Source: an uncultured Actinomycetota bacterium | Lineage (GTDB): Bacteria; Actinomycetota; Actinomycetes; JAHEKZ01 | NCBI GenBank assembly: GCA_963718235.1 | Contig: CAVQYR010000001.1 | Location: 608,001 to 672,000, forward strand | DNA: 64,000 nt | Direction of reading: 5' to 3' | Shown: piece by piece, positions 10,953 to 33,006 of the stretch | Numbering within the stretch: position 1 is the first letter of the stretch | How the letters are laid out: each line of letters opens with the position of its first letter | Made by a program: the position numbers and the translations under genes | The notes under the pieces: generated by a model | What the model saw: the letters and a program-made list of their open reading frames with translations, nothing else | Database searches by the model: none | Told to the model about the DNA's origin: nothing

Positions 10953-11927
10953 CTAGGCCTGGGCCTTCTTGGTCTCCTCGATGATCGCCGGAAGGATCTT
11001 GTGCAGGTCACCGATGACGGCGTAGTCGGCGTAGCCCATGATCGCTGCCTCGGCGTCGTTGTTGATCACGATCATCGTCTTGGCGTTACGGCACCCGGCA
11101 ATGTGCTGGGTCGCCCCGCTGATCCCTGCGGCGATGTAGAGGTCCGGCGCCACCTTCGTACCGGTCTGCCCCACCTGCTCGGTGTGTGGTCGCCACCCGT
11201 TCCCGGTGACCACCCGAGAGCAGCCGACTGCTCCGCCGAGCAGCTCGGCGAGCTCCTCCAGCGGTGCGAACCCCTCGGCGCTGCCCACGCCACGCCCACC
11301 GGACACGATCACCTTGGCGTCGGCCAGTGAGACCTTGCCGGGGCCGGCCTCCTCGTCGGCCGCCGGCTGCGCGAGCACGACGAGGTCGGCGTCGGACAGC
11401 TCGGGGGTGAACTCGGCGACCGCGACCGTGGTCGCCCCGCCCGGCTCTGCGGCGAACGTGTGCGGGACGACGGTGGCGAGGGTCGTGGGTGCGTGCACGA
11501 TCGCCTCCTCGATGAGGCTGCCGCCCCACCGCGCCCTGGTCACCGTGGTCGGGTCACCGGGCTGGACGGCGACGCAGTCCGCGGCGACGGGAAGGTCGGT
11601 GATCGCACCCAGGTGGGCGAGCACCTCGTTCCCGCGCAGTGAACCGACGGCCAGCACGACCGTGGTGCCCGAGCGCTGCATCACCTCGGCCACCGCCCGC
11701 GCCGACGCGAGCGGCGCGTAGTCGGTCAGGCCGGGGTGCACGGCCAGGTGCGCCGTGGTGACTCCGTAGTCACCGAGGGCAGCTGTGGCGGGCCGGCCGT
11801 CTTCTCCGACGACGACAGCCTCGAGCGGCTCTGCGAGCCCACCCGCCAGCTGGCGACCGAAGGTCAGCGCCTGCAGCGTCAGCTCGTCCAGCTGTCCGTG
11901 GTCGTGGTCGACGAGGACGAGTACCAC
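10953..11927 (-). CDS. etfA: Electron transfer flavoprotein alpha subunit
   Basis: 'VSGGRGVGS' and 'QVGQTGTKVAPDLYIAAGISGATQHIAG'. Confidence 0.96.
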   Translation of the reverse strand: MVLVLVDHDHGQLDELTLQALTFGRQLAGGLAEPLEAVVVGEDGRPATAALGDYGVTTAHLAVHPGLTDYAPLASARAVAEVMQRSGTTVVLAVGSLRGNEVLAHLGAITDLPVAADCVAVQPGDPTTVTRARWGGSLIEEAIVHAPTTLATVVPHTFAAEPGGATTVAVAEFTPELSDADLVVLAQPAADEEAGPGKVSLADAKVIVSGGRGVGSAEGFAPLEELAELLGGAVGCSRVVTGNGWRPHTEQVGQTGTKVAPDLYIAAGISGATQHIAGCRNAKTMIVINNDAEAAIMGYADYAVIGDLHKILPAIIEETKKAQA

Positions 11928-12683
11928 TCAGATCACCCCGATCTGCTTGAAGATCTCGACGACTGCGGGCGCGGCTTCCGGACCGGTGCCCAGCACGGCG
12001 GCCTGCTTGGCCTCGGTCTGCGGGACGACGAGCCGGGTCTTCTGCAGCCGCGGCTCGGGACGGTCCGGCGTGCGTCGGTCGACCGGCTTCTTCTTGGCCC
12101 GGATGCGTCCTGGCACCGATGGGTAGCGAGGCACGTTCAGCCCGTCGAGCACGGTGACCACGGCCGGGAGCGGAACCTCGTAGCGCTCGCGCGCCGATGC
12201 GGTGGGTCGTTCGCAGGTGACCCGACCGTCGTCGACGGTCATCGCCTTCACCCCGGTGACGACGGGTCGGCCCAGGGTGTGGGCCACCCGGATGCCGACC
12301 TGGTAGCCGCTTGCGTCGGCCGACTCGTTGCCCATGATCACCAGGTCGAACGAGGTCTCGTCGGCCACGATCGCCTCGGCGATCGCCGTCGCCGTCGCCT
12401 GCGGGTCCCACTCCTGGCCGTCGGTCTCGATCAGGATGCCCCGGTCGGCGCCGATCGCCATCTGCTCGCGGATCTGCTCCTCGGCCTCGGCCGGGCCGAG
12501 GGTGAGCACGGTGACGCTGCCCCCGTGCTTCTCCACGAGCCGGACCGCCTCCTCGACCGCGACCTCCTCGTGCGGGCTGATCGTGAATCCGAGCCGGGCC
12601 GTCTCGATGTCCAGGCCGTCCTCGGTGATGGTGAACTTGCCCCCGCTCAGGGGGACCCGCTTGATGCAGACCAGGATGTCCAT
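11928..12683 (-). CDS. etfB: Electron transfer flavoprotein beta subunit
   Basis: 'MDILVCIKRVP', 'AVEEAVRL', 'GADRG' and 'NVPRYPS'. Confidence 0.95.
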   Translation of the reverse strand: MDILVCIKRVPLSGGKFTITEDGLDIETARLGFTISPHEEVAVEEAVRLVEKHGGSVTVLTLGPAEAEEQIREQMAIGADRGILIETDGQEWDPQATATAIAEAIVADETSFDLVIMGNESADASGYQVGIRVAHTLGRPVVTGVKAMTVDDGRVTCERPTASARERYEVPLPAVVTVLDGLNVPRYPSVPGRIRAKKKPVDRRTPDRPEPRLQKTRLVVPQTEAKQAAVLGTGPEAAPAVVEIFKQIGVI

Positions 12684-15202
12684 CAGGAGAGAATCCGCTC
12701 GTTCTTGGGGTCGAACAGGGGAGTGGCGCCGGCCACGGCGACCGTCACCGGGTAGTGCTCACCGAGGTACTCCACGACGAGCTTGGTGCCCTCGACGGCG
12801 TACTGCGGCGGCAGGTAGCTCATGAGCACGTGCTGCCCGAGTGACGGTGCCGAGCCGGCGCTGGTGACGAACGAGTACCGGCCGTGAGCGTCGACGATCG
12901 AACCGTGGTCGGGCGTGAGGATCGGCTCCTTGCCCATCATGTAGCGCTTCTCGCCGGTGCTGCTGGTGTGGTCGTCGACGGTCAACGTGCACAGCACGGT
13001 CACGGGCTCGGCCTCGCGGTGCTTCAGGTGCGCGGCTTTGCCGATGAAGTCGTGCTCCTTGATCTTCGGCGGAGCCATGCCGGCCTCGACGACGGTGTAC
13101 TCAGACTCCAGCTCTGCGCCGAAGGCCCGGTAACCCTTCTCGAGTCGTCCGGTCGTGCCGTAGACGCCAATGCCGACGGGGACGACGCCGTACTCCTGGC
13201 CAGCGTCCCAGACGGCGTCCCACAGCTGGGCGCCCTGCTCCATCGGGACGTAGAGCTCCCAGCCGAGGTCGCCCACGTAGGAGATCCGTGAGGCGAGCAC
13301 CTTCAAGGACCCGATCTCGATCGTGCGGCAGGTGCCGAACTTGAAGGCCTCGTTGGAGACGTCGTCACGAGTGATGCTGGACAAGATGTCCCTGGCCTTG
13401 GGCCCCCAGAGTCCCAGCGTCGTGTACGACGACGTGAGGTCGAACACCTGCGCCGTGCCGTCGGCCGGCAGGTTGTCGGAGAACCACTTGAGGTCGGCCA
13501 TTCCGTGAGCGCCACCGGTGACCACTCGGTAGTGGTCGTGTCCGAGACGCATCACGGTCAGGTCGGACTTGAAGCCACCGCTGGGCGAGAGCACCGGCGT
13601 GTAGACGACACGGCCGTTCGGGACGTCCATCTGGCGCATGCAGACCGTCTGCAGTGCCTCGAGCGCGCCGGGACCGGTGATGTCGAAGATGACGAAGGCG
13701 GTGAGGTCCACCATGCCTGCGGTGTCGCGCATCGCCAGGTGCTCGGCGTTGATGATCGGTGACCACCAGCGCGACTCCCACTCGGCGGTGCGTGGCATCA
13801 CGGCGTCGCCGTACTTGGCGACCAGGTCGGCGTTCGACTCGTACCAGAACGGCCGCTCCCAGCCGGCGGTCTCGAAGAACGTGGCTCCGAGCGCCTTCTC
13901 GCGCTCGTAGAACGGCGAGAGCCGCACGTTGCGGTTGGACTCCCACTGCTCGGCCGGGTGAACGATGCCGTAGGTCTTGTTGAAGCCCTCGGCCGTACGC
14001 TCCTTGACGTTCTTGCGCGTCGTCTGATGGGGGTAGAAGCGGGCGATGTCGGAGGCCTGCAGGTCGATCTCGGACTCGCCGTTGACCATCCACTCCGAGA
14101 CGGCGCGGCCGATGCCTGGGCCCTCCTTGATCCACACCGCAGACACCGACCAGAGGCCCTTGACCTCGGGCGTCTCGCCGAGCAGTGGCATGCCGTCAGG
14201 AGTCAGCGAGAGCAGTCCGTTGATGGCGTACTTCTGGCCGACGGTCTCGTCGCCGACGATCTCGGGCATCAGCTCGAGTGCCTGCTCGTACTGCAGCTCG
14301 AAGTCCTCGGCGGTGAAGGGGAACTCGGTGGGCGACAGCTGCGCCTCCTCGACCGACGGCAGGTCCTCGGGGTCGTAGAGGATCGCGCGGTGTGCGTAGG
14401 AGCCGATCTCCAGGCCGCCGCCGTGCTGGCGCTCGTACATGTTGGTGTCCATGTCGCGCACGATCGGGAACTCGATGTCGCCCTTGGCGTCGGCGAACCG
14501 GGGCACGGGTCCGACGTCGATCATCTGGTGCACTGCCGGCGTCAACGGGATCGAGGCACCGGCCATCCGGGCCAGGCGCGGACCCCACAGCCCGGTCGCG
14601 ATGACGACGTACTCGGCCTCGATCCGGCCCTTGTCGGTGACCACGGCCTTGACCCGGCCGTCCTCGACCTCGATGTCGTGCACCTCGGTCTCTGCCGAGA
14701 CCGTCAAGGCCCCCATCTCCTGGGCCTTCTCGCGCATCAGCGTGCCGGCGCGCAACGAGTCGACCACACCGACGGTCGGTGTGTAGAAGCCACCGAGGAT
14801 CACACTGCCGTCCATGTACGGCACGAGCTCGACGCACTCATCAGGGGTGAGGATGGTGCAGTCGGGAATGCCCCAGGCCTTGGACGACGACATGCGGCGC
14901 TGCAGCTCCTGCATGCGCTCCTCGGTGCGCGCGACCTCGATGCCACCGCACTGGGTGAAGACACCGAGCTCCTTGTACTGCTTGACGCTGTCGAAGGTGA
15001 GCAGCGCCATCTCCTTGGTGTGGTCGACCGGGAAGATGAAGTTCGACGCGTGGCCGGTCGAACCGCCGGGGTTCGGCAGCGGGCCCTTGTCGATCTGCAC
15101 GAGGTCGCGCCAGCCCAGACGCGCCAGGTGGTAGGCCATGGAGTTGCCGACGATGCCGGCGCCGATGATGACCGCCTTGGCCTTGGTGGGGAGGGTGCTC
15201 AT
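12683..15202 (-). CDS. Dimethylglycine/sarcosine dehydrogenase family (FAD domain plus GcvT folate-binding domain)
   Basis: 'IIGAGIVG', 'GGSTGHA' (covalent FAD His), 'TPDGMPLLG', 'GWERP', 'SYVGDLGWELY' and 'RLEKGYR'. 839 aa, translationally coupled to etfB. Confidence 0.9.
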   Translation of the reverse strand: MSTLPTKAKAVIIGAGIVGNSMAYHLARLGWRDLVQIDKGPLPNPGGSTGHASNFIFPVDHTKEMALLTFDSVKQYKELGVFTQCGGIEVARTEERMQELQRRMSSSKAWGIPDCTILTPDECVELVPYMDGSVILGGFYTPTVGVVDSLRAGTLMREKAQEMGALTVSAETEVHDIEVEDGRVKAVVTDKGRIEAEYVVIATGLWGPRLARMAGASIPLTPAVHQMIDVGPVPRFADAKGDIEFPIVRDMDTNMYERQHGGGLEIGSYAHRAILYDPEDLPSVEEAQLSPTEFPFTAEDFELQYEQALELMPEIVGDETVGQKYAINGLLSLTPDGMPLLGETPEVKGLWSVSAVWIKEGPGIGRAVSEWMVNGESEIDLQASDIARFYPHQTTRKNVKERTAEGFNKTYGIVHPAEQWESNRNVRLSPFYEREKALGATFFETAGWERPFWYESNADLVAKYGDAVMPRTAEWESRWWSPIINAEHLAMRDTAGMVDLTAFVIFDITGPGALEALQTVCMRQMDVPNGRVVYTPVLSPSGGFKSDLTVMRLGHDHYRVVTGGAHGMADLKWFSDNLPADGTAQVFDLTSSYTTLGLWGPKARDILSSITRDDVSNEAFKFGTCRTIEIGSLKVLASRISYVGDLGWELYVPMEQGAQLWDAVWDAGQEYGVVPVGIGVYGTTGRLEKGYRAFGAELESEYTVVEAGMAPPKIKEHDFIGKAAHLKHREAEPVTVLCTLTVDDHTSSTGEKRYMMGKEPILTPDHGSIVDAHGRYSFVTSAGSAPSLGQHVLMSYLPPQYAVEGTKLVVEYLGEHYPVTVAVAGATPLFDPKNERILS

Positions 15203-15247: not shown

Positions 15248-15919
15248 CTACAGCGAACGGCGGATCGAGCCTTCGAATCCGTCGACGTGGGAGGACATGA
15301 CGGCGGTGGCGCGCTCGGCGTCACCGCTGCGGATGGCCTCGAGCAGGCTGCGGTGCTCGAGGACGGCGTCCTCGAGGTGGCTGACCCGGTCGAGGGCGAG
15401 GAACCAGATGCGTAGCGCGTGCATGTAGTGCTCGTCGAGCACGGATGCCAGGAACTCGTTGTGGGCGGCCCGGTGCACGAACCGGTGGATGCGCTGGTCG
15501 ACCTCGATCAGCCGGCGCTCCTCGGGCAGCTCGCCCAGGGCGTCCAGCTCGACGAGCAGGCCCTCGAGGTCGTCGCGGTCGGCGTCGTTTCGCCGCTCGG
15601 CGGCGAGACCGGCCGCGAACGGCTCCAGGACGCTGCGCACCTCCGACAGGGCGGCCAGGTCGCGGACGTCGACGCCTGCGACGAACATGCCGCGCCGGGG
15701 GTAGACCTCGACCAGGTTCTCCCTAGCCAGGGCGCGAAGCGCCTCGCGCACGGGGGTGCGGCCGATCCCGAGCCGGGCCATCAGGTCCTGCTCGCTGACC
15801 ACCGACCCGGGGGCGAGGTCGAGGGTGACGATCATGCTGCGGATCGCGTAGTAGGCCTGCTCCGACTGCGAGCCGGCATCGGCCGACGCCGGCTGCAGGA
15901 TCTCCACGGACGAGGTCAC
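15248..15919 (-). CDS. GntR (FadR/FCD subfamily) regulator
   Basis: 'SEQDLMARLGIGRTPVREAL' wHTH plus FCD histidines. Confidence 0.94.
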   Translation of the reverse strand: MTSSVEILQPASADAGSQSEQAYYAIRSMIVTLDLAPGSVVSEQDLMARLGIGRTPVREALRALARENLVEVYPRRGMFVAGVDVRDLAALSEVRSVLEPFAAGLAAERRNDADRDDLEGLLVELDALGELPEERRLIEVDQRIHRFVHRAAHNEFLASVLDEHYMHALRIWFLALDRVSHLEDAVLEHRSLLEAIRSGDAERATAVMSSHVDGFEGSIRRSL

Positions 15920-16066: not shown

Positions 16067-16519
16067 TTACTGGCCGGCCTCCGCGGCGCGCAGCCGGCGG
16101 GCCAGCACCGACAGCATCGGGACGGCGACCTCGGGGTGCTCGTCGAGCAGGGCCTTGAACGTCGGCTTCTCCAGCGCGAAGGTCGTCATGCCCTCCGGCC
16201 CGGCCACGACATCGGCCGTGCGTGGTTCGCCGTCGATGAGCGACAGCTCGCCGAAGTACTGCCCAGGCCCGAGGGTCGCCACGGTGGTGCCTCCCTTGAC
16301 GACGTCGCCGGAGCCCTCCAGGACGAGGTGGAAGAGCACCCCTCGGGCGGAGAAGGTCTTGAACCCGGCGACCGACTCACCCTCGACGGTCACCTTCTCG
16401 CCAGGGGGGAAGCGGCCCTCCTCACCGGCGTGCACGAGCTTCTTCAGGGTGCGATGGGACAGACCGGAGAACAGGTCGGTCGACTCCATGACCGTGACGA
16501 TCGCCTCTGTGGAATCCAC
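16067..16519 (-). CDS. Stand-alone cyclic-nucleotide-binding domain protein (150 aa)
   Basis: 'LGPGQYFGELSLIDGEPRTADVVA' phosphate-binding cassette, no C-terminal HTH, GGGAGG RBS before the GTG. Confidence 0.88.
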   Translation of the reverse strand: MDSTEAIVTVMESTDLFSGLSHRTLKKLVHAGEEGRFPPGEKVTVEGESVAGFKTFSARGVLFHLVLEGSGDVVKGGTTVATLGPGQYFGELSLIDGEPRTADVVAGPEGMTTFALEKPTFKALLDEHPEVAVPMLSVLARRLRAAEAGQ

Positions 16520-16646: not shown

Positions 16647-17351
16647 TCAACCCCCCGGTGCTGTCGTCCCCGGTCGGGACGGCGTCGAACGTGCAGAACA
16701 TGAGGTCCGAAACGGTCGAGACCGCACATCAAGTCCAAGATCAACTTGGGGGTGGGGTGGGGGGTCGGCGGTGAGGAGGCGCTGCAGCTCGGCCTCCAGG
16801 CCGGCCAGGCCGACGTCGACCACCTCGAGCGGCAGGCCGATCGCGGCCGCGGCCACGCGGGCGGCGGCGGTCAGCTCGGGCGTGCGTCGCTGGGCGAGCC
16901 ACACGACCCGGGTGTAGCGACCGAAGTAGTCGTCGCGCAGCTCGGGGTACCGGTCGAGCCCCAGCTCGGCCAGGACGGTCCGGCGAAACGAGAGCACCAG
17001 GAAGTCGGTGAGCACGTAGGTGCCGGGCTGCTCCTCGAACACCTGCTTCATCCGTTGGACGCCGGCGAACACGTCGTAGCAGTGCGCGCCGCCGAGCCGA
17101 CCGACACCGCGGCGGGCACAGACGTCGTCGAGCGCCCCGTAGGTGCCGCAGTCGGCGTACCCGACGGCCAACCGCTGGTGGCGGGCCGACAGCTCGTCGA
17201 GCGCCACCTCGACCGCGTCAGCGATCCGCTCGGGGTGGTTGTGCAGCAGCGGGGGCAGCGGTTTGACCTCGATCGGCCAGCCGCGGGCGTCGGCGACCGA
17301 GGAGATGTCGGAGGCGATCGCCCCGCACGCGACGACGCCGACGGAGGTCAC
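16647..17351 (-). CDS. DUF1638-like protein (corrinoid reactivation partner)
   Basis: 'VVACGAIA', 'LPPLLHNHPERI', 'YADCGTYGALD', 'GAHCY', 'GTYVLTDFL' and 'LGLDRYPELRDDYF'. GTGA overlap with the RACo gene. Confidence 0.85.
   Translation of the reverse strand: MTSVGVVACGAIASDISSVADARGWPIEVKPLPPLLHNHPERIADAVEVALDELSARHQRLAVGYADCGTYGALDDVCARRGVGRLGGAHCYDVFAGVQRMKQVFEEQPGTYVLTDFLVLSFRRTVLAELGLDRYPELRDDYFGRYTRVVWLAQRRTPELTAAARVAAAAIGLPLEVVDVGLAGLEAELQRLLTADPPPHPQVDLGLDVRSRPFRTSCSARSTPSRPGTTAPGG
16682..16748 (-). repeat. REP-like repeat, copy B (inverted relative to copy A)
   Basis: Reverse complement reads CAAGTTGATCTTGGACTTGATGTGCGGTCTCGACCG. Confidence 0.8.
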
Positions 17352-19198
17352 GTCGGGAAGCCCAGCTGCTCGACGAACAGGTCGTTGAAGTCCGAGCGGT
17401 CGGACAGCTCGAGGTACTCGATCTCGTCGAGCAGGGTCTGGGCGCCATGGCGCTCCTGGGCCGAGAGCAGCACCATCTTCGCCCCCTCACCAGCGACATT
17501 ACCGGCGCTGACGATGCGCAGCACCGGAAGGTTCGGCACCAGCCCGATCCGCACAGCACTGGACGGCGACAGGTACGTGCCGAACGACCCGGCGAGCAGG
17601 ACCTGCTGGATCTCGCCCTCGCCGACTCCGAACTCCTCCAGCAGCAGGCGCCAGCCCGTGGAGATCGCCGCCTTGGCGAACTGCAGCTCGCGCACGTCGC
17701 GCTGGGACAGGTAGACCGGGTCTCCCTCGACCGGCGAGGCGAGCTCGAAGACCCGCTCCTTGTCGATGGTCACCAGCCGGTCGGCCAGGGCAGGGGCGAC
17801 CTGGCGCGCCACGTCGTCGGTGACGAACCGACCGGAGGAGTCGAGCAGTCCGACCCGCACGAGCTCGCTCACGGCGTCGACCAGCCCTGACCCGCACAGC
17901 CCCACGGGCTCGACGTCACCGATGACCTGCAGCTCGAGGCCCTGGTCGGTGGCCCTGACCACCTCGATCGCCCCGGGTGCGGCCCGCATGCCGCTGCGGA
18001 TCGAGGCCGCCTCGAAGGCCGGGCCGGCCGGTGCCGCCGTGGCGAGCAACCGTTCGCCGTCACCGAGCACGAGCTCGCAGTTGGTCCCGATGTCGATGAA
18101 CAGCCGCAGCCGCTTGTCTCGGTCCATCCCCGTGGCCAGGACGCCGGAGATGATGTCGCCACCGACGTAGGCCCCCAGCGAGGGGAAGACCGACGCGCGG
18201 GCCCTGGGGTGGATCGACACCCCGAGGTCGTGGGCGGTGAGCCCCTGGTACCCGCTCGTGGCCAGGATGAACGGCGCGACCCCCAGGGGCTCCGGGTCGA
18301 TACCGAGGACGAGCTGCACCATGGTCGCGTTGCCGGCCAGAGCCACCTCGTACACCTCGGAGGGGTCGACACCGGCCTCTGCGCATGCCTCGTGCGCGAG
18401 CTCGTTGAGGGTCTGCTGGGCCAGGAACTGCAGCCGGCCCAGAGCCTCCGGGTCGAGCATGGTGGAGCTGATCCGGGTGATCACGTCGGCCCCGAACGGC
18501 TGCTGGCGGTTCAGCATCGAGTGGACGGCGGCCGGGGTCCCGGTCTTCACGTCCATCAGGTTGGCCACCACCGTCGTGGTTCCCAGGTCGAACGCCAGCG
18601 CGTACGCCCGCGCAGCCGTGTCCCCGGCCTCGACGCCGATGAGCTCGTCGTCGACGACGATCGCGGTCACCTTGTAGTCGGCGGCTCGGAGCACCCGCCC
18701 GAGCTCTCGGTGTACGGCGGGATCGACCCGCAGCTCGAGGTCGTCGATGGCGTCGAGCAGCCGGGCGAGGTCGCTGCGCTGGTCGGACAGCGTCGGCTCG
18801 TCGAGCTCGACGAACCGCTTCTGCAGCGCCGGCCGCAAGATGACCTGGCGCCCCACGCCCACCGTGGCCGCCTTGGGTCGGGTGGTCAGCGGGGGGACCT
18901 CGATCGACAGGTCGGTGTTGGCGGCTGCCATGCAGGCAAGACGCCAGCCGTCGTCGAGCTGGTCGGTGTCGAAGGCGCGGAGGTCCAGGCGCTGCACGGG
19001 GACGTCGCCGGACAGCACGCGCACCTTGCACTTCTTGCACGTGCCGTGGCCACCGCAGGTCGAGTCGATGGCGATGCCGTTCCAGCTGGCGGCGTCGAAC
19101 ACGGTGACGCCGGCCGGGACGCGCACCTCCTTGTCCGACGGTGTGAAGCTGAGTCGTACGCGGGCAGGACCGTGGTCCTCGACCGGCTCGACGGACAC
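17348..19198 (-). CDS. ATP-dependent reductive activator of corrinoid protein (RACo/RamA-like; 2Fe-2S plus ASKHA, DUF4445)
   Basis: 'CGGHGTCKKC...RLAC' 2Fe-2S domain, 'DLGTTT', 'FGADVITRI', 'DIGTNCE', 'AGPAFE' and 'GLCGSG'. Confidence 0.94.
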   Translation of the reverse strand: MSVEPVEDHGPARVRLSFTPSDKEVRVPAGVTVFDAASWNGIAIDSTCGGHGTCKKCKVRVLSGDVPVQRLDLRAFDTDQLDDGWRLACMAAANTDLSIEVPPLTTRPKAATVGVGRQVILRPALQKRFVELDEPTLSDQRSDLARLLDAIDDLELRVDPAVHRELGRVLRAADYKVTAIVVDDELIGVEAGDTAARAYALAFDLGTTTVVANLMDVKTGTPAAVHSMLNRQQPFGADVITRISSTMLDPEALGRLQFLAQQTLNELAHEACAEAGVDPSEVYEVALAGNATMVQLVLGIDPEPLGVAPFILATSGYQGLTAHDLGVSIHPRARASVFPSLGAYVGGDIISGVLATGMDRDKRLRLFIDIGTNCELVLGDGERLLATAAPAGPAFEAASIRSGMRAAPGAIEVVRATDQGLELQVIGDVEPVGLCGSGLVDAVSELVRVGLLDSSGRFVTDDVARQVAPALADRLVTIDKERVFELASPVEGDPVYLSQRDVRELQFAKAAISTGWRLLLEEFGVGEGEIQQVLLAGSFGTYLSPSSAVRIGLVPNLPVLRIVSAGNVAGEGAKMVLLSAQERHGAQTLLDEIEYLELSDRSDFNDLFVEQLGFPT

Positions 19199-22971: not shown

Positions 22972-22998
22972 GTTCTATCATATGGAACCCCCGTTCCA
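22972..22998. promoter_or_regulatory. Putative IclR operator in the iclR/mttB divergent region
   Basis: GTTCTAT-CAT-ATGGAAC near-palindrome overlapping TGGAAC-CCCC-GTTCCA. Confidence 0.6.
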
Positions 22999-24595: not shown

Positions 24596-25573
24596 TCAGC
24601 CGCCCTGAAGCCAGGCGTCGACCTTGTCCGGGTTGTCGTCGATCCACTGCTGGGCGGCGTCCTCGGGGGACATGCCGTCCTTGGCGATCATCAACGCAAC
24701 GGCGTTCTGGTCGTCGTTGGTCCAGGTGAAGTTCTCCACCAGCTGTGCGGCCGGGCCGTTCTCCTCCATGAAATCAGCCGCAGCGATCTTGTCCAGGATG
24801 TACTCGGGGTAGTCACAGGCCACGGTCGCCGGGTCGGCGTCACAGCCCTCGGTCCACACCGGCAGGTCGACCTTCACCAGCGGCACCTCGGACAGGAACC
24901 ACTGTGGCTCGTAGAAGTACCCGAGGACCCATTCCTTGTTCTGCTCGGCAGTGCGGAACGCCTGGATCAGGGCAGCCTCGCTGCCGGCGTACACGACCTC
25001 GAAGTTGAGGTCGAGGTTCTCGATGAGCGCCTCGTCGTTGGTGACGAACGAGGGGTCGCCGTCGAGCAGCTGGCCCTTGTCGCCCGACTCGGCGGTCTTG
25101 AACTTGTCCGCGTACTTGTTCAGGTTCTCCCAGTTCGTGATGTCCGGGTACTCCTCGGCCAGCCACGGCGGCACGTACCAGCCGATGACGCCGATGTTGC
25201 CGTTCGGGCCGACGTCGACCGCAGTGCCCTGCTTGTCGATGTACTTGGCCTTCAGGTCGTCGTGGCCCCAGTTCTCGATGACGACGTCGACCTCACCGGT
25301 GCCCATTCCCTGCCAGGAGACTTCTTCCTTGAGGTCCTTGTAGTTGACCGTGCAGCCGAGCTTGGTGGCGGCCACCTCACCGACCACGTAGGCAGACGCC
25401 TCGTAGCCGACCCAGGGGTTGATCGCCATGTTGAAGTCACCGCACTCGGAGGCCGCCGTGCTGCCGCCGTCCCCACCACCGCTGATGTCATCACTCCCGC
25501 ACGCCGCCACGGCCAGACTGGCTGCGGCAGCGAGCACTGCCAGACGGGCTACCCGTCGTCTTGCTCCTCGCAC
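24596..25573 (-). CDS. Glycine betaine/choline ABC transporter substrate-binding lipoprotein (ProX/OpuAC family)
   Basis: Lipobox 'LAVAAC', 'NPWVG', 'IENWG', 'GWYVP' and 'YFYEPQW'. GAAGGAG RBS before the GTG. Confidence 0.9.
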   Translation of the reverse strand: MRGARRRVARLAVLAAAASLAVAACGSDDISGGGDGGSTAASECGDFNMAINPWVGYEASAYVVGEVAATKLGCTVNYKDLKEEVSWQGMGTGEVDVVIENWGHDDLKAKYIDKQGTAVDVGPNGNIGVIGWYVPPWLAEEYPDITNWENLNKYADKFKTAESGDKGQLLDGDPSFVTNDEALIENLDLNFEVVYAGSEAALIQAFRTAEQNKEWVLGYFYEPQWFLSEVPLVKVDLPVWTEGCDADPATVACDYPEYILDKIAAADFMEENGPAAQLVENFTWTNDDQNAVALMIAKDGMSPEDAAQQWIDDNPDKVDAWLQGG

Positions 25574-25611: not shown

Positions 25612-27777
25612 TCACGCTGCCTCCACCCGTCCGTAGCGGGCTGCTGTGTGGACGGTGATCCGGTCGAGCATCACACCGAGCGCGGTGATGGCGATTCCGG
25701 CCGCCAACCCCTTTCCGAAGTCCTCGCCCTGGGAGAACCCGCTGATGACCAGGAAGCCGAGTCCGCCCCCGCCGACGAGACCGCCGATCACGACCATGGA
25801 GAGGACGAAGAGCAGTCCCTGGTTCGCGGCGAGCACGATCGAGCCTTTGGCCATGGGGAGCTGGACCTTGCCGATCATCTGCCAGCGGTTGGAGCCGGCT
25901 GCTTGGGCGGCCTCGACCGTGGTCGGTGAGACCCCTCTGATGCCGTCGGCTGAGATCTTGATGGCGACCGGTGCCGCATACAGCACGGCTGCTGCGATCG
26001 CCAGGAAGCGACCGGGGGGGAACAGTGCCAAGGCGGGGACGAGGTACACCAGCGAGGGCATCGTCTGCAGCCCGTCCAGCAGCGGCCGAACGGCGGTGTC
26101 GACCCGTCGGCTGCGGCCCATCCAGACTCCGACGACCACGCCCAGCACCATGACCAGGATCGCGGCGACGAGCGTCATGGCCAAGGTGACCATCGAGTCG
26201 TTCCAGAGGCCGGTCCCGAAGATGACGGCCAGGCAGATCGAGGTCGGAAGGAGCGCGCCACCCGCCCCTGACGCCACCGCGGCCACGACGAGCGCGGTGA
26301 TGATGCCCCAACACAACCACCAGGCGACGTCGAGCGACCCGTTGGCCCAGAGGCCGGAGCCGACGACGATGAGGGCGCACAGGACAGTCGACACCAGTCG
26401 TCGGCCCTGACTCGACGCGCCCACGCCGCCGAGGATCCCGGCGATGGCCAGGATCGTGCCTGCGACGAGCCACCACGGGGCGTTGGCCATCAGGTCCTGC
26501 AGCGGGTTGAGCAAGAAGTTCGTGACCGCGTCGCTGATCCACTTCGTGACCTGACCGAACGTGTCGGTGAACGCCTTGATGGCGTCGTTCACCCATCGCG
26601 CGATGCTGCGGCCCAGGTCACTGTCAGGGAACACCGACCAGCGAAGCTTGGTGTTCGACAGGTACACGAAGACGACGGCGACGATGCCGCCGGCGGCCAG
26701 CGTGGCGTTTCGGACGCGAGGGTTGATCCGCCGACGCGCTGTGACCTCGTAGCGCTCACCTGCGGCTACGGTCGCCCGGTCCAGCATGATCGCCATGATC
26801 ACGATGCAGGCGCCGGCGACGAACGAGACGCCCACGTTGAGCGCACCCAGTGCACGGACGATGGGGATACCCAGACCGGGCCCACCGACGAAGGCCGCGA
26901 TGATCGCCATGGACAGCGCCGCCATGATCGTCTGGTTGAGTCCGACGATGATCGTTCGGCGTGCCATCGGCAGCTGAACCTTCGACAGCAGCTGCCGCGA
27001 GGTCGACCCCAAGGCGGTGGTTGCCTCCACGGTGGTCGGCGAGACGGTGCGGAGCCCATGTGCCGAGATGCGGACCAGGGGAGGCAGCGCGTAGATCAGC
27101 GTGGCCACCACGGCGGCCGGGTTGCCGATGCCGAAGACGAGCACCAGCGGCGTCAGGTAGGCAAAGGATGGCATCGTCTGGAAGACGTCGAGCACCGGGG
27201 TCACCATCGCGGTTGCCCTCTCACTGCGCGACATCCAGATGCCCAGCGGCAGGCCGATGCCGACGCAGATCACGACGGACACCAAAGTGATGACCAGCGT
27301 GTCGATGCTCGCTTCCCAGTACCCGAGGTAGCCGAACGCCAGCATCGAGAAGAGGGTGAGCACGGCGATCCGGACGCTGGCCAGGGCGTAGGCCACCCAG
27401 ACGGCGAGGGCGACGACGCCCGCCCACCCGACCACGGCCACGGCCAGGGGACGCCCTGGGTCGGAAACGAAGAGCTTCTGCAACGTGCTGACCGTCCAGT
27501 CGATCGCGCTGCTGATCCAGTCGATCGGAAGGAAGAGGAGGTTGCCGTTGAACTTGGCCTCTTCGACGGAGTCTCTGAGGCTGTTCAGCCAGAGCTGGAA
27601 ATCGGTGAGCTCGGCCGTCGGCAGGTCCTGGGTGTTCCTGCCCTGGAGGAGCCAGCCCAGCACGACCCATACTGCGACCACTGCCGCGAGTGCGAGCCAG
27701 CGGTTGCGGTTGGTGCGGTCCGGTGGCGGTGGACTCTCGGGCTGGGGGTACTCGATCTCGGCGAGTTCGACAGCCAT
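25612..27777 (-). CDS. Glycine betaine ABC transporter permease with two fused ProW-type domains
   Basis: Two copies of 'LD..QTMPS..YL.P' and two EAA loops ending 'KVQLPMA'. Confidence 0.92.
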   Translation of the reverse strand: MAVELAEIEYPQPESPPPPDRTNRNRWLALAAVVAVWVVLGWLLQGRNTQDLPTAELTDFQLWLNSLRDSVEEAKFNGNLLFLPIDWISSAIDWTVSTLQKLFVSDPGRPLAVAVVGWAGVVALAVWVAYALASVRIAVLTLFSMLAFGYLGYWEASIDTLVITLVSVVICVGIGLPLGIWMSRSERATAMVTPVLDVFQTMPSFAYLTPLVLVFGIGNPAAVVATLIYALPPLVRISAHGLRTVSPTTVEATTALGSTSRQLLSKVQLPMARRTIIVGLNQTIMAALSMAIIAAFVGGPGLGIPIVRALGALNVGVSFVAGACIVIMAIMLDRATVAAGERYEVTARRRINPRVRNATLAAGGIVAVVFVYLSNTKLRWSVFPDSDLGRSIARWVNDAIKAFTDTFGQVTKWISDAVTNFLLNPLQDLMANAPWWLVAGTILAIAGILGGVGASSQGRRLVSTVLCALIVVGSGLWANGSLDVAWWLCWGIITALVVAAVASGAGGALLPTSICLAVIFGTGLWNDSMVTLAMTLVAAILVMVLGVVVGVWMGRSRRVDTAVRPLLDGLQTMPSLVYLVPALALFPPGRFLAIAAAVLYAAPVAIKISADGIRGVSPTTVEAAQAAGSNRWQMIGKVQLPMAKGSIVLAANQGLLFVLSMVVIGGLVGGGGLGFLVISGFSQGEDFGKGLAAGIAITALGVMLDRITVHTAARYGRVEAA

Positions 27778-27779
27778 GA

Positions 27780-28850
27780 CTAGTGCGCTTCCTCGGCGAC
27801 GACGATCCGCAGGATGTCGTCCTGGTCCACAACCCCCAGGAGCTGGCCGCCCTCGACGACCCGCACCGGGTGCTCGGCGTCGATGACGCGGCGCGCGGCG
27901 TCTCGGACGATGGTGTCCGGTGACATCTCCGGTCCCTCCAGGGACTCGTCACCGCGCCGTTCGCGCATCACCCACCGCAACGTCAGCACGTGCGACCGGG
28001 GCACCTCGCTGACGAAGTCACGCACGTAGTCGTCCGCGGGGGCTCCCACGACTTCGGCCGGCGTACCCATCTGGATCAGTGCACCGTCTCGCATGATCAG
28101 GATCCGGTCACCCAGCTTGAGGGCCTCCTGCAGGTCATGGGTGATGAAGACCATGGTCTTGCCCACCTCGTGGTGCAGCCGGATGACCTCGTTCTGCATG
28201 TCGCGACGGATCAGCGGGTCGAGGGCGGAGAACGGCTCGTCGAAGAGCAGCACCGAGGGGTCGACCGCCAGCGCACGGGCCAGTCCGACGCGCTGCTGCA
28301 TGCCACCGGAGAGCTGGTCGGGGTAGGAGTCCTCGTTGCCGGTCAGACCGACGAGGTCGACGAGCTCCTGCGCCTTGGCCCGACGGTCGGCCTTGCCGAC
28401 CCCGCGGATCTCCAAGCCGTACGCGACGTTGTCGATGACCTTGCGGTGCGGCAGCAGCCCGAAGTGCTGGAACACCATGGAGACGTGGTGCCGACGCAAC
28501 TCCCTGAGCCGGGACTCCGACATCTTGACGACGTCCTCGTCTCCGATCAGCACCTTGCCGGAGGTCGGCTCGATCAGCCGGGTGAGGCAGCGCACGAGGG
28601 TGGACTTGCCGGAGCCGGAAAGGCCCATGACGACGAAGACCTCGCCCGGTGCGACGTCGAAGCTCACGTCGCGCACTGCTGCGGTACAGCCTGTCTTCGC
28701 CATCAGATCTGACCGACTGAGCTCGGCGTCCGGTGAGCCGACGATCTTGTCGGCCTTGGGTCCGAAGATCTTCCACAGCCCCTCGACGGTCAGGGCCGCC
28801 CCTCCAGTGGTGGTCGCCGGCAGTGCGGCGTCGTCGACAGCAACACTCAT
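27780..28850 (-). CDS. Glycine betaine ABC transporter ATP-binding protein (ProV/OpuAA family)
   Basis: 'GLSGSGKST', '[15 protein letters not shown]' and '[12 protein letters not shown]'; short CBS-like C-terminus. Confidence 0.95.
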
Positions 28851-30562
28851 GCGTGGGCTCCCTGCTGGTCGCTCTGCTGGTTTCGGTAGTCACCCGGAGG
28901 GTAGAGCGGACTGCCGTCTCGGTAGCGGTAGTACGGCGCATCCGAGGGGGGAAGTGGCGTGTTGCCGGCGATGAGGTCTGCGGCCTTCTCGGCCAGCATC
29001 ATCACCGGGGCGTAGATGTTGCCGTTGGTGACGTAGGGCATCGAGCTGGCGTCCACGACGCGCAGGCCCTCGACGCCGTGTACCTCCATCGTCGTCGGGT
29101 CGAGCACTGCGTCGTCGTCGACGCCCATCTTGGCCGTGCACGACGGGTGGAGTGCGGTCTCGGCGTCCTTGGCGACCCAGTCGAGGATCTCCTCGTCGGT
29201 CTCCACCGAGGGTCCCGGTGAGAGCTCACCGTCGTTGAACGGCGCGAACGCCTGCTGGTTGAGGATGTCCCGGGCCACGTGGATGCACTCGATCCACTCC
29301 TGGCGGTCGGTGTCGGTGGACAGGTAGTTGAACTGCAGCGCCGGGTGCTGCCTGGGGTCGGTGGACTTGAGCTTCACGGTACCGCGCGCGTCGGAGTACA
29401 TCGGTCCGATGTGCACCTGGTAGCCGTGGCCCTCGGTGGGTGAGGTGCCGTCGTACCGGATCGCGATCGGCAGGAAGTGGAACATCAGGTTCGGGTAGTC
29501 GACCTGGTCGTTGCTGCGGACGAAGCCACCGCCCTCGAAGTGGTTGGTCGCACCGAGCCCCGAGCGCAGGAACATCCACTGCGCGCCGATTCCGGGGCGC
29601 TTCCACCAGGCGAGCCCGGGGGCGATCGACACGGGCTGCTTGCTGGCGTACTGGATGTACACCTCGAGGTGGTCCTGCAGGTTGGCGCCCACGCCGGGGA
29701 GGTCGGCGACGACCGGGATCCCGAGTGCGGACAGGTCGTCGGCGTTCCCCACGCCGGACAGCTGCAGCAGCTGGGGGCTGTTGATGGCCCCGCCGCACAG
29801 GATCACCTCGCCAGCGCTCACCGACCGCAGCGACCGTCCGGCCCGCAGGTACTCGACACCGACTGCGCGCTTGCCCTCGAACAGCACCCTGGTGGCGTGG
29901 GCGAGGGTCTCGACCTTGAGGTTCTTGCGGTCCATGACCGGGTGCAGGTAGGCCCGTGCGGCGCTGAGCCGGCGTCCGCGGTGGATGTTGCGGTCGAACC
30001 GGGCGAACCCCTCCTGGCGGTATCCGTTGACGTCGTCGGTCAACGGGTAGCCGGCCTGCTGGGAGGCCTCGAAGAAGGCCCCGAACAGCGGGTTGGTCGC
30101 GGGTCCGCGCTCGAGCACCAGCGGGCCGCTGCCTCCGCGCCACTCGTCGGCGCCGGCGAGGCAGGTCTCCATGCGCTTGAAGTACGGCAGACAGTGGGCG
30201 AAGTCCCAGGTCTCCATGCCCTTGTCGGCGCCCCAGCGCTCGTAGTCCATCGGGTTGCCGCGCTGGAATATCATCCCGTTGATGCTGCTGGACCCACCGA
30301 GCACCTTGCCTCGCGCGTGGTAGACCTTGCGCCCGCCCATGAAGGGCTCCGGCTCCGACTCGTACTTCCAGTCGTACAGGCGGCTGCCGATCGGGAACGG
30401 CAGCGCTGCGGGCATGTGGATGAACGGGTCCCAGATGAAGTCCGACCGTCCGGCCTCGAGGACCAGCACGCTCGTCGCCGGGTCGGTGCTGAGCCGGTTG
30501 GCCAGGGCCGACCCGGCCGATCCGCCACCCACGATGACGATGTCGAAGTGCCGGTCACTCAT
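28847..30562 (-). CDS. betA: Choline dehydrogenase (GMC oxidoreductase)
   Basis: 'VGGGSAG', 'IHMPAAL', '[14 protein letters not shown]', 'NLQDHLE', '[11 protein letters not shown]' and 'ETALHPSCT'. Confidence 0.94.
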
Positions 30563-30589
30563 CAGTCGTGCTCCCAGGGCTCGTCACGG

Positions 30590-32059
30590 TCACGACCCGA
30601 ACCAGTGCTGCGGCTGGGGCTCGAGGTTGTTCCAGATGTGCTTGGTCTCGCGGTACTCGGCCAGGCCGTGGTGTCCCAGCTCGCGCCCGAAGCCGGACTG
30701 CTTGTAGCCGCCCCACTCGGCCTGTGGCACGTACGGGTGGTAGTCGTTGATCCACACCGTCCCCGCGCGCAGGCCGGCGGCCACCCGCTGGGCCTTGGCC
30801 GCGTCGGAGGTCCAGACCGCTCCGGCCAGGCCGTACGTCGTGTCGTTGGCCAGGGCGAGGGCCTCGGCCTCGTCGGAGAAGGTCTCCACCGTGAGGACTG
30901 GGCCGAACGACTCGTCCTGCACGATGCTCATCGCCGCGGCGCACCGGTCGAAGATCGTGGGCAGGTAGTAGAAGCCGTCAGCCAGGGCCGGGTCGTCGGG
31001 ACGACGGCCACCGCAGCGCAGCACCGCGCCCTCGGCGACCCCGGCGGCGACGTACGCCTCGACCTTGCCCAGGTGGGCAGCCGAGACCAACGGACCTGTC
31101 TCCGCCTTCTCGTCGAACGGGCCACCGAGCCGGATTGCTGACGTTCGCCGGACCAGCTCGTCGACGAAGTCGTCGTGGATCGACTCCTCGACCAGCAGCC
31201 GCGCCCCGGCCGAGCACACCTGGCCGGAGTGCAGGAACACCGCCGTCAGCGCGAAGTCGAGGGCCGCCTCACGGTCGGCGTCGGCGAACACGATGTTCGG
31301 GTTCTTGCCGCCCAGCTCGAGGGCGACCTTCTTCACCGTCGCCGCGGCCTCGACCATGATGTGGCGCCCCGTCGCGAGCCCGCCGGTGAACGAGACGAGG
31401 TCGACGCGGGGGTCGCTGGACAACGGTGCGCCGGCGGCCGGCCCGGCTCCGAGCACAAGGTTGGCCACGCCGGACGGGAGCCCGGCGTCGGCCAGCTCAC
31501 GCATCAAGAGGATCGCGGTGGACGGGGTGAGCTCGCTGGGCTTCAGGACGAACGTGTTGCCTGCCGCGAGCGCGGGTGCGACCTTCCACGAGGTCTGGAG
31601 CAGGGGGTAGTTCCACGGCGTGATCAGCCCACAGACCCCCACGGGTTCGTTCACGACCCGGCTGTCGACCTCGGGGCGGTCGACCTCGACCTGCCGGGTG
31701 CTCTCTTCGGCCGCGAGGCGGGCGTAGTAGCGAAAGACCGCGATGACGTCGTCGAGGTCGTACTCGGCCTCGACGTAACGCTTGCCGGTGTCCATCGCCT
31801 CGGCGCGGGCGAACTCGGCCTTGTGCGCCACCAGCCGGTCGGCCACCGCGCTGAGCAGCGCCCCTCGCTCGACACCGGAGGTGGAGGGCCACGGACCGTG
31901 GTCGAAGGCCGCTCGGGCGGCCGCGATCGCCGCCTGGGTGTCCTCGGCGGTCGCCTCGTCGACCTCGGTGACGAACGACCCGTCTGCGGGGCAGGTGATC
32001 GTGCGGCGCCCGTGCTGGCGCGCGGACTGCCACTCACCGCCGATGAACAGGTCCGGCAC
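30590..32059 (-). CDS. betB: Betaine aldehyde dehydrogenase
   Basis: 'ITPWNYP', 'LELGGKNP', 'HSGQVCSAG' and 'ESFGP'; adjacent to betA; GAGGT RBS. Confidence 0.88.
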   Translation of the reverse strand: MPDLFIGGEWQSARQHGRRTITCPADGSFVTEVDEATAEDTQAAIAAARAAFDHGPWPSTSGVERGALLSAVADRLVAHKAEFARAEAMDTGKRYVEAEYDLDDVIAVFRYYARLAAEESTRQVEVDRPEVDSRVVNEPVGVCGLITPWNYPLLQTSWKVAPALAAGNTFVLKPSELTPSTAILLMRELADAGLPSGVANLVLGAGPAAGAPLSSDPRVDLVSFTGGLATGRHIMVEAAATVKKVALELGGKNPNIVFADADREAALDFALTAVFLHSGQVCSAGARLLVEESIHDDFVDELVRRTSAIRLGGPFDEKAETGPLVSAAHLGKVEAYVAAGVAEGAVLRCGGRRPDDPALADGFYYLPTIFDRCAAAMSIVQDESFGPVLTVETFSDEAEALALANDTTYGLAGAVWTSDAAKAQRVAAGLRAGTVWINDYHPYVPQAEWGGYKQSGFGRELGHHGLAEYRETKHIWNNLEPQPQHWFGS

Positions 32060-32084
32060 GCTTACCTCGACTCGTGGTGCAATA

Positions 32085-32124: not shown

Positions 32125-32214
32125 AATGCTGAGGGCGGCCAAGCGCGTCAAGGGTTGTGGCCGCACTGTGATCCACCCGTTGATCCAGCGGGGTTGCGAC
32201 CCTCCCTCACCTGC

Positions 32215-33006
32215 TCAGCGGTTGGCCCATCCCATCCGGGCGGACACCTGGGCCCCAGCGGCCCGCACCGCGTCGATCACGGTGCCAGTCCCCTCGACGG
32301 CGAGCCGGAAGCTGGGCCCCGAGACGCTCACCGACGCGATGATGTCGCCGTGCAGCGAGCGCACCGGTGCCGCGACGGCGGTGAGCCCGACCTCGAGCTC
32401 GTCGACGGCGACGGCGAACCCGTCGCGGCGCGTCTCGTCCAGCGCGGCGATGAGCTCGGCCGGGGTCGACAGGGTGGCCGGGGTGTACTGCCGAAGGTCC
32501 GAGCCGATCAGCCGTCGCACCTGGTCATCGGTCAGCCCGCCCAGCAGGACTCGTCCGTTCGCCGTAGCGTGGGCGGGGACCCGTTGGCCGATCCAGTTGT
32601 GCAGCTGCACCGCGGTGGGTCCGGCCACCTGGTCGAGGTAGAGCACAGCGCCGTCGCTGAGCACCGCCAAGTTGACCGTCTCCCCGGTCCGAGCAGCCAG
32701 GTCGCGGCAGATCGTCCGGGCCTCGGAGACGACGTCGAGCCGGGCGATCATGGCTCCGGCCAGTCGCAGGATGCCCGAGCCGAGGCGGTACTTGCCCCGC
32801 TCGCCGTTCTGCTCGACGAGGTCACGAACCTCCAGTGCTGTGACCAGCCGGAAGGCGGTGGACTTGTGAACCCCCAGGAAGGTGGCGATCTCGGTCACCC
32901 CCACCTCACCGGTGGAGGCGAGCAGCTCCAGGATCCGCCCGGCCCGGTCGACCGACTGCACGGTTGCGCTCGCAGCCTCCGCGGGGCCACCGCCGGTGTT
33001 GCTCAT
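32215..33006 (-). CDS. IclR family regulator
   Basis: 'VQSVDRA...GVHKSTAFRL', 'GETVNL' and 'HATANGRVLL'. ATG is 6 nt after TACCGT. Confidence 0.94.
   Translation of the reverse strand: MSNTGGGPAEAASATVQSVDRAGRILELLASTGEVGVTEIATFLGVHKSTAFRLVTALEVRDLVEQNGERGKYRLGSGILRLAGAMIARLDVVSEARTICRDLAARTGETVNLAVLSDGAVLYLDQVAGPTAVQLHNWIGQRVPAHATANGRVLLGGLTDDQVRRLIGSDLRQYTPATLSTPAELIAALDETRRDGFAVAVDELEVGLTAVAAPVRSLHGDIIASVSVSGPSFRLAVEGTGTVIDAVRAAGAQVSARMGWANR

Follow-up and report, generated by a model that had tools for sequence, protein, structure and literature searches.

A probable actinobacterial version of cobalamin-dependent glycine betaine demethylation, joined to genes for choline uptake and oxidation

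We analyzed a gene block of 22 kb (positions 10953-33033) within a stretch of 64,000 nucleotides (hereafter the window) from the genome of an uncultured Actinomycetota bacterium (assembly GCA_963718235.1, contig CAVQYR010000001.1, positions 608,001 to 672,000). The block surrounds mttB, which encodes a methyltransferase of the MttB superfamily (MttB1). Judging from the encoded protein families, the block is quite probably an actinobacterial version of the aerobic, cobalamin-dependent demethylation of glycine betaine of the MtgBCD type, joined here to choline uptake and oxidation and to the oxidation of dimethylglycine (DMG). It represents a new host for a known pathway and not a new pathway; the new points are small, namely a palindrome in the iclR-mttB promoter, a glycine at the position of a betaine-binding phenylalanine (F356) of the characterized enzyme, and the presence of three MttB paralogues with one B12 core.

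Open reading frames (ORFs) were filtered by third-position GC and then scanned against Pfam and NCBIfam. The G+C content of the window is ~66-75%, and the host genome consists of 3.17 Mb in 2 contigs, with an estimated completeness of 95%. Every gene class listed in a preliminary description of this DNA was recovered, in the order and range given there, and the protein it had called "DUF1638-like" proved to be a true member of that family. The features of the block are the following:

10953..11927, minus strand: etfA, electron transfer flavoprotein (ETF) alpha subunit (ETF_alpha 9.2e-34, ETF 7e-26); starts directly after the etfB stop
11928..12683, minus strand: etfB, ETF beta subunit (ETF 1.3e-35); start codon (ATG) overlapping the DAO-GcvT stop codon by one base
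12683..15202, minus strand: DMG dehydrogenase/oxidase-type enzyme with DAO, FAO_M, GCV_T and GCV_T_C domains (DAO-GcvT enzyme)
15248..15919, minus strand: GntR/FCD-family regulator (GntR 5.3e-18, FCD 7.3e-25)
16067..16489, minus strand: stand-alone cNMP-binding ORF of 140 aa (cNMP_binding 1.1e-10), absent from the list of the preliminary description
16647..17351, minus strand: DUF1638 protein (PF07796, 1.9e-22), proposed helper of corrinoid reactivation
17348..19198, minus strand: RACo/RamA-type ATP-dependent reductive activase (Fer2 with N-terminal [2Fe-2S], RACo_linker, Raco_middle, RACo_C_ter)
19201..20070, minus strand: methyl-corrinoid:tetrahydrofolate methyltransferase of MtgA/MtgD type (Pterin_bind, PF00809, 2.5e-29; NF005719 321.8 bits, cut-off 259)
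20042..20995, minus strand: MetF, MetVF-type methylenetetrahydrofolate reductase (MTHFR 7.9e-22); likely GTG start 1 nt past the metV stop
20997..21455, minus strand: MetV, cysteine-rich MTHFR_C/DUF5981 subunit (PF12225, 1.1e-24)
21465..22130, minus strand: MtgC-type corrinoid protein (B12-binding, PF02310, 5.1e-32; B12-binding_2, PF02607, 2.9e-15)
22127..22903, minus strand: first IclR-family regulator (HTH_IclR and IclR_C), heading the B12 operon
22972..22988, no strand: conserved palindrome GTTCTATCATATGGAAC in the iclR-mttB promoter, candidate IclR operator; extra GTTCCA half-site at 22993-22998
23068..24507, plus strand: MttB1, non-pyrrolysine MttB-superfamily methyltransferase (MTTB, PF06253, 4.8e-188)
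24596..25573, minus strand: OpuAC-type substrate-binding protein of a betaine/choline ATP-binding cassette (ABC) importer (OpuAC 2.8e-39); start with a ribosome-binding site
25612..27777, minus strand: fused double permease of the importer (two BPD_transp_1 domains)
27780..28850, minus strand: ProV-type ATPase of the importer (TIGR01186 proV 354.9 bits, cut-off 326.6)
28847..30562, minus strand: BetA, choline dehydrogenase, a GMC flavoprotein (TIGR01810 831.6 bits, cut-off 732.1)
30590..32059, minus strand: BetB-like betaine aldehyde dehydrogenase (Aldedh 3.8e-164)
32215..33006, minus strand: second IclR-family regulator (HTH_IclR and IclR_C), heading the betBA-importer operon

According to the predicted starts and the stop/start overlaps, two closely packed minus-strand operons flank mttB, the single plus-strand gene. 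Operon A (from 23.0 to 16.6 kb) reads iclR-mtgC-metV-metF-mtgA-RACo-DUF1638, with an ATGA overlap between iclR and mtgC and a GTGA overlap between RACo and DUF1638; downstream of it, in the same direction, lie the cNMP-binding ORF, the GntR/FCD regulator, the DAO-GcvT enzyme, etfB and etfA. mttB is divergent from operon A across an intergenic region of 164 bp. Operon B (from 33.0 to 24.6 kb) converges on mttB and reads iclR-betB-betA-proV-fused double permease-opuAC, with an ATGA overlap between betA and proV, and stop/start overlaps are found throughout both operons. For several genes the likely start lies downstream of that of the longest ORF, i.e., RACo (19198, longest ORF from 19264), metF (20995, from 21193), the first iclR (22903, from 23035), mttB (23068, from 22858) and the second iclR (33006, from 33033), as well as opuAC (25573) and betB (32059). 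A 322-aa plus-strand ORF at 16746-17714, antisense to DUF1638 and RACo and without a family match, was discarded as probably a shadow ORF.

The MttB1 protein has at least 581 relatives in a scan of species-representative genomes. The related loci considered here are the best 80 of these (MttB 76-90% identical), whose titles name almost only Actinomycetota, including the cultured genera Nocardioides, Planobispora, Planomonospora and Phycicoccus. Among the cultured carriers are Nocardioides aquiterrae JCM 11813, N. islandensis KCTC 19275, N. mangrovi, Planobispora takensis NBRC 109077 and Planomonospora venezuelensis CECT 3303. Synteny was scored by tblastn (E <= 1e-10, high-scoring pair covering at least half of the query except for metF, the cNMP-binding ORF and mttB) in the 50 loci that are 19 kb or longer. 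The B12 core is nearly always present: mtgC and mtgA were found in all 50 loci, iclR in 49, RACo in 48 and DUF1638 in 43. As for the choline half, betA, betB and proV occur in 41 loci each, the permease in 36 and opuAC in 33. The remaining counts are 14 each for metF and metV, 12 for gntR, 9 for the DMG enzyme, 7 for etfB, 4 for etfA and 0 for the cNMP-binding ORF, the last genes of the cluster being undercounted, as 8-12 kb separate them from mttB and the flank ends at 10 kb. Gene order is conserved among the related loci, with the betAB-importer module found in both orientations relative to the B12 module; in one metagenome-assembled genome (MAG; locus L018), this orientation and a menF-like neighbour are as in the window. 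Because the same arrangement recurs across many genomes, it is not due to chance. Six further MAG loci (L029, L040, L041, L064, L067, and L077) contain the same high-GC actinobacterial cluster with an MttB identity of 78-80%, and the titles of these MAGs (Bifidobacterium breve, Rubrivirga sp., Actinomyces sp.) look wrong for contigs carrying it.

A match was obtained in 17 of the 18 genomes from the family of the host. Fourteen of the 18 hold an orthologue, 12 of them in one full-length piece at 86-93% identity; three carry only an MttB3-like gene (see below), and the one that gave no match has a completeness of 73%. A class-level sample of 301 genomes includes 29 with a match at E <= 1e-100; with the family set aside, 14 of 286 remain, one of the 14 being flagged unpublished and used in this count only. 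A phylum-level sample contains 68 genomes out of 401 with any MTTB-family gene. A search of sequencing runs listed 20 DNA runs as carrying this sequence, with shares of 0.45 or less, and no RNA run. The preliminary description had supposed that the full architecture might be new to Actinomycetota. As a matter of gene content this does not hold, the architecture being widespread in sequenced members of the phylum; at the experimental level it stands, in that we found no experimental study of an MtgBCD-type system in Actinomycetota in a literature survey that did not extend to subscription journals and supplements.

Among solved structures, MttB1 scores 444 bits with 4yyc, 384 with Desulfitobacterium hafniense MtgB (2qne), 382 with the "glycine betaine methyltransferase" 9yce, and only 152 with the pyrrolysine-containing MttB 7xcl. 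The last value, a reading frame free of internal stops and a TIGR02369 score of 287.8 bits, below the cut-off of 525, led us to reject a pyrrolysine MttB, in agreement with the preliminary description. The two paralogues encoded elsewhere in the genome, MttB2 and MttB3, reach 313 and 322 bits in this comparison, so that MttB1 is the closest of the three to the solved betaine methyltransferases. According to excerpts of Picking 2026 (PMC13080624), Y97, R312, H348, and F356 are experimentally validated betaine-binding residues of D. hafniense MtgB. We mapped them by hand from the MttB1-2qne alignment (2qne numbering = native + 16). Y97, R312 and H348 are conserved in MttB1 as Y168, R382 and H418, F356 corresponds to G426, and four residues upstream, at the I352 position, stands W422. 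The same Y/R/H/W/G pocket pattern is shown by each of the 79 actinobacterial orthologues, and also by the MttB of Sinorhizobium meliloti; the Tyr97 position is occupied by Ala or Gly in the paralogues (Gly in MttB3). The invariant Trp may stand in for the aromatic ring of F356. Glycine betaine is the best guess for the substrate of MttB1, a prediction reinforced by the flanking betAB and DMG-type enzyme.

Alternatively, MttB1 could act on another acidic quaternary amine, such as proline betaine, carnitine or gamma-butyrobetaine, with its proximity to betAB and the DMG enzyme being coincidental or reflecting a broader osmolyte island. This would fit the Gly shared by MttB1 and all 79 orthologues, since, according to excerpts of the same study (PMC13080624), MttB members acting on other substrates keep R312 and, less so, H348 but not the aromatic pair. 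Moreover, we found no member of the 4yyc-like clade with a published in vitro substrate, and in Ruegeria pomeroyi two MttB homologues are induced, yet the knock-outs described in excerpts of Mausz 2025 (PMC12478193) were in mtgC and mtgD. Against it speak the Tyr97 equivalent, retained in MttB1 and all its orthologues and lost in both orphan paralogues, the position of MttB1 as the paralogue nearest to solved MtgB, the betaine-producing betAB in 41 of the 50 loci, and a DMG-type enzyme present wherever the flank extends far enough (9 of 50, an undercount given its distance of 8-10 kb). We consider another substrate quite unlikely and keep glycine betaine as the predicted one.

The other components of the B12 core have the expected features. 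The corrinoid protein carries the motif DVHDIG (DxHxxG) at residues 102-107; the activase matches the solved RACo 3zyy over its full length (332 bits) and has a ferredoxin CX5CX2C motif, and its gene is adjacent to and overlaps that of the DUF1638 protein. The N-terminus of MetV is rich in cysteines, and the metV-metF pair lies directly upstream of mtgA. Leaving MetH aside, RACo, DUF1638, MetF (by tblastn), MetV and the pterin methyltransferase are each single-copy in the genome, and MtgC is its only capped corrinoid protein. A 182-aa ORF (C1:772408-772956) was rejected as a second MtgC, as it has a B12-binding domain without the cap and stands in an unrelated context. It is preceded by a UvrD helicase gene and an ORF without a Pfam match and followed by an Oxidored_FMN gene; the latter encodes an 809-aa Oxidored_FMN/Pyr_redox flavoprotein of the dienoyl-CoA reductase or amine dehydrogenase type (region C1:772408-775400).

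The closest functional parallel is found in aerobic Proteobacteria. Excerpts of Mausz 2025 (PMC12478193), a genetic and proteomic study, report that knock-outs of mtgC and mtgD in R. pomeroyi DSS-3 lose growth on betaine, that betaine, choline and carnitine each induce two MttB-family proteins, the MetF paralogue MetF2, RamA and DUF1638, and that BetABC is induced together with MtgBCD on choline. They also state that such genes are often co-located in other bacteria, naming S. meliloti with co-localised MtgBCDE and reactivation genes, and that ~5% of ocean mtgC reads belong to Actinomycetota. The window contains the same seven protein families as the Ruegeria/S. meliloti system, with identities to the S. 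meliloti locus of 31% for RACo, 47% for MtgD, 36% for MetF, 51% for MetV, 41% for DUF1638, 46% for MtgC and 45% for MttB. The S. meliloti counterpart of MtgA is annotated as "methyltetrahydrofolate cobalamin methyltransferase" and that of MetV as "MTHFR C-terminal domain-containing protein", and the locus shares with the window the metV-metF pair, the divergent mtgC<>mttB layout and the pocket pattern described above. As in Ruegeria, the host of the window is an aerobe with several MttB paralogues to one corrinoid core. The preliminary description had called the system one of anaerobe type; this has to be abandoned, as the parts match the aerobic R. pomeroyi set (MtgBCD, RamA, DUF1638 and MetF2, from excerpts of PMC12478193) and the S. 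meliloti locus. Unlike both of these, the window belongs to another phylum, has one tight IclR-led operon with its own palindrome, and combines the B12 genes with betAB, the ABC importer and the DMG enzyme-EtfBA genes; furthermore, its genome has a classical MetH, lacks a close MtgE, and yielded no corrin synthesis pathway.

The same three-component chemistry is known from the anaerobic betaine:tetrahydrofolate (THF) methyl transfer by MtgB, MtgC and MtgA of D. hafniense Y51 (2qne, 9yce; excerpts of PMC13080624). The window differs from it in the Gly at F356 and the Trp at the I352 position of MttB1, in a corrinoid protein that scores under both MtgC cut-offs, and in a host that respires with O2 and menaquinone, where methyl-THF is presumably oxidised and not fed to an anaerobic pathway. 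As for MetVF, the translationally coupled two-gene arrangement of a Cys-rich PF12225 MetV and a MetF resembles that of acetogens (e.g., Clostridium ljungdahlii MetFV, as described in excerpts of PMC8515935); unlike the acetogen pair, that of the window belongs to an aerobe, sits beside a methyl-THF-producing methyltransferase, and would run oxidatively.

In the choline half, BetA is closest to the solved "oxygen-dependent choline dehydrogenase" 9lq0 (619 bits), the value with choline oxidase 2jbv being 282 bits. The fused permease reaches 358.7 bits with the NCBIfam choline permease model (cut-off 363) and 345 bits with ProW, and the OpuAC protein matches the choline-binding model TIGR03414 weakly (59.9 bits, below cut-off). 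BetAB and ProU are classical osmoprotection genes, and the importer-betAB half could serve the accumulation of betaine, with the other half being catabolic, i.e., two adjacent functions. This module indeed varies in its orientation towards the B12 module, comes with a separate IclR regulator, and is absent from 9 of the 50 full-length loci that retain the B12 core. However, 41 of 50 loci, from several families, have both modules side by side, and R. pomeroyi BetABC is co-induced with MtgBCD on choline (excerpts of PMC12478193). Two separate functions are thus unlikely in our view, and a joint catabolic role remains the preferred explanation, although the osmoprotective and catabolic roles of the betAB half are not mutually exclusive.

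The DAO-GcvT enzyme has the DAO-FAO_M-GcvT architecture of Arthrobacter globiformis DMG oxidase (1pj5) and of mammalian ETF-linked DMG dehydrogenase (5l46, 4pab), in which, as in the window enzyme, a folate-binding domain traps the C1 unit. Its sequence is nearer to the oxidase (562 vs 307 bits), yet the overlap with etfB points to ETF, as for the mammalian dehydrogenase. The genome further encodes a haem-copper oxidase subunit I (COX1) and a 1060-aa protein with Fer4 and 2xCCG domains, which we take to be of the kind called EtfD in mycobacteria. Together with the men and nuo genes that flank the block, these form its respiratory context. No SoxB-type sarcosine oxidase was found above cut-off in the genome (best score 121.7 vs 529 bits).

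An alignment of 79 mttB upstream regions revealed the palindrome GTTCCA-N5-TGGAAC. In the window its distance to the ATG of iclR is 69 nt and to that of mttB 80 nt, and it is the only match with <=2 mismatches within the 64 kb. The exact sequence GTTCYA-N5-TGGAAC is found in 52 of the 80 related loci, shortly 5′ of mttB wherever its position was compared with the gene start, and is absent from the MttB paralogue loci and the S. meliloti locus. At 3 mismatches, 38 matches were obtained where 24.7 are expected; none of the extra matches was convincing or located in a cluster promoter, and additional operator copies were not retained. The palindrome is a candidate operator of the first IclR regulator, which probably controls the B12 operon and mttB through it. 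Orthologues of the second IclR regulator (53-63% identity) adjoin betAB in Nocardioides-type loci, and the GntR/FCD regulator keeps its position between the DMG enzyme gene and DUF1638 in related loci. The cNMP-binding ORF is inserted between DUF1638 and gntR; no homologue was found in any of the 50 loci, and it has one paralogue in the genome (38% identity).

Next to each of the three MttB genes of the genome lies a DAO-GcvT gene, out of seven in total. MttB2 (54% identical to MttB1) lies in C1:1077000-1090000, a region with a GC content of 59-66% against ~72% in its flanks. Its neighbours encode an alpha/beta hydrolase, a carboxylesterase, an SBP_bac_5 protein and a DAO-GcvT enzyme, and two of them are fragments, one of a Rieske oxygenase alpha subunit and one of a DAO protein. 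The 30 relatives searched gave no match resembling MttB2 (~54% identity), the gene being seen only in the host genome; the region gives the impression of an island that was acquired recently, is in partial decay and would be directed at another quaternary amine or ester. MttB3 (39% identical to MttB1) lies in C2:165000-173000 and has similar genes in most genomes of the family. It is flanked by a Zn-alcohol dehydrogenase on one side and by a divergent DAO oxidoreductase, a DAO-GcvT enzyme and an EamA transporter on the other; no corrinoid protein was found near it. It is conceivable, though we hold this wider picture to be doubtful, that one corrinoid hub (MtgC, the methyl-THF methyltransferase, RACo, DUF1638 and MetVF) serves three MttB spokes, each with its own DAO-GcvT dehydrogenase, for the demethylation of three quaternary amines in a corrin-scavenging aerobic actinomycete; MetVF would then work in reverse, with EtfBA and then menaquinone as possible acceptor.

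MtgC, the pterin methyltransferase, RACo and DUF1638 might instead work mainly as a split methionine synthase of the kind known from Phaeobacter and Ruegeria, with betaine demethylation being secondary. Their homologues, the MtgC/MtgD/RamA/DUF1638 set, are required by R. pomeroyi for making methionine (excerpts of Mausz 2025, PMC12478193), and the genome has two stand-alone genes with a homocysteine S-methyltransferase domain (PF02574). These are, however, only 26% and 28% identical to the bmt/MtgE-type gene of S. meliloti, one being MmuM-like in that it stands beside an amino-acid permease gene; no such gene lies inside the window cluster, a classical MetH reading frame of 1164 aa is present, and the regulator at the head of the B12 operon is common to mttB. 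Given the classical MetH and the lack of a close MtgE, the link to methionine synthase is probably not needed. In addition, MetH and MtgBCD co-occur in 28 of 239 metH genomes according to excerpts of PMC12478193, so that the split methionine synthase is not required for the betaine role. A main role in methionine synthesis is therefore very improbable, and betaine demethylation is retained as the function of the core. At C1:2109300-2112730, a 317-aa gene with a homocysteine S-methyltransferase domain (the one 26% identical to S. meliloti bmt) is convergent with a DAO-GcvT paralogue, a pair that could represent a B12-independent betaine-homocysteine route.

Homology and synteny together suggest the following pathway. 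An OpuA/ProU-type ABC importer would bring in choline or betaine, and choline would be converted to glycine betaine by BetA and BetB. MttB1 would then demethylate betaine once to DMG, the methyl group going to MtgC, the corrinoid protein, in its Co(I) form, and the pterin-binding methyltransferase would pass the methyl group from MtgC to THF. Accidentally oxidised Co(II) would be returned to Co(I) by RACo and DUF1638 at the expense of ATP. MetVF would convert methyl-THF to methylene-THF, while the DAO-GcvT enzyme would convert DMG to sarcosine and methylene-THF, delivering electrons to the translationally coupled EtfBA and from there, probably via the EtfD-like Fe-S/CCG membrane protein, to menaquinone. 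Sarcosine would be handled by one of the six paralogous DAO-GcvT enzymes encoded elsewhere, and the corrinoid would be taken up externally and completed by CobU/T/S. The sequence of steps from choline through betaine and DMG (plus methyl-THF) to sarcosine (plus methylene-THF), as put forward in the preliminary description, is the best reading of homology and conserved synteny. The block is not self-contained, as had been claimed, since it lacks genes for sarcosine oxidation, the re-oxidation of ETF, C1 oxidation and the B12 cofactor. Similarly, the assertion that no step needs O2 goes no further than an inference, the DAO-GcvT enzyme being nearest to DMG oxidase and BetA to an oxygen-dependent choline dehydrogenase.

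Several observations weigh against the proposed pathway. The F356 aromatic of MtgB is a Gly in MttB1 and in its whole clade, S. meliloti included, so that glycine betaine is a putative substrate of MttB1. The corrinoid protein falls short of the thresholds of the two curated MtgC models (210 vs 370 bits and 170 vs 310 bits). MetVF lies inside the cluster in only 14 of the 50 related loci and is therefore an optional part of it. BetB scores 588.1 bits with its best model, TIGR01804 for betaine aldehyde dehydrogenase, under the cut-off of 668.6, and we infer its function from its position beside betA. The nearest relative of the DAO-GcvT enzyme is the O2-using Arthrobacter DMG oxidase (562 bits, compared with 302-307 for mammalian DMG dehydrogenase), and the only feature suggesting ETF as its acceptor is the gene overlap with etfB. 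The scores of EtfA and EtfB with solved structures do not separate bifurcating from non-bifurcating ETF: EtfA reaches 155 bits with CarE and 154 with the C. difficile protein on the bifurcating side, against 133 with that of Paracoccus and 130 with the human one, and the EtfB values are 95, 92.5 and 92.5. No canonical ETF:quinone oxidoreductase was found in the genome, which is 95% complete.

The supply of the corrinoid cofactor, which is assumed, belongs with these difficulties. No pathway for the corrin ring was found in this 95% complete genome, neither CbiC nor CobD/CbiB being detected and TP_methylase genes numbering only two. No cobalamin riboswitch was detected at gathering score, the sole RF00174 match in the genome reaching 26.5 vs 31.5 bits, and no B12 importer was identified, the seven ORFs scanned around this sub-threshold match (six to its left and one spanning it) being without a Pfam match. 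At C1:1487400-1492300, gcvT is followed on the opposite strand by cobS, cobT and a metallo-beta-lactamase-CobU fusion. The presence of CobU, CobT and CobS without the ring genes suggests salvage or remodelling of corrinoids without ring synthesis; the host therefore probably scavenges corrinoids.

The block is bounded by menaquinone genes, with a MenD-type thiamine pyrophosphate enzyme upstream and a chorismate-binding enzyme and UbiE/MenG downstream; the latter are followed by a complete nuo operon (38734-54131). A few kb beyond it lies a second, partial nuo-like set:

59074-59562: NuoA
59570-60115: NuoB
60525-61643: NuoH
62179-62706: NuoJ
62708-63046: NuoK

This set (59074-63046) could be a ferredoxin-linked relative of complex I. 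Divergent from it is a two-subunit 2-oxoacid:ferredoxin oxidoreductase (56080-59131).

If the proposed function is correct, aerobic B12-dependent breakdown of betaine, recently described in marine and rhizobial Proteobacteria, would also belong to Actinomycetota of soil and freshwater, where it would be coupled to a lifestyle that probably depends on scavenged corrinoids. Nocardioides, Planobispora, Planomonospora and Phycicoccus offer cultured carriers for testing the pathway, and the palindrome provides a candidate operator sequence for the regulator of betaine degradation in this group.

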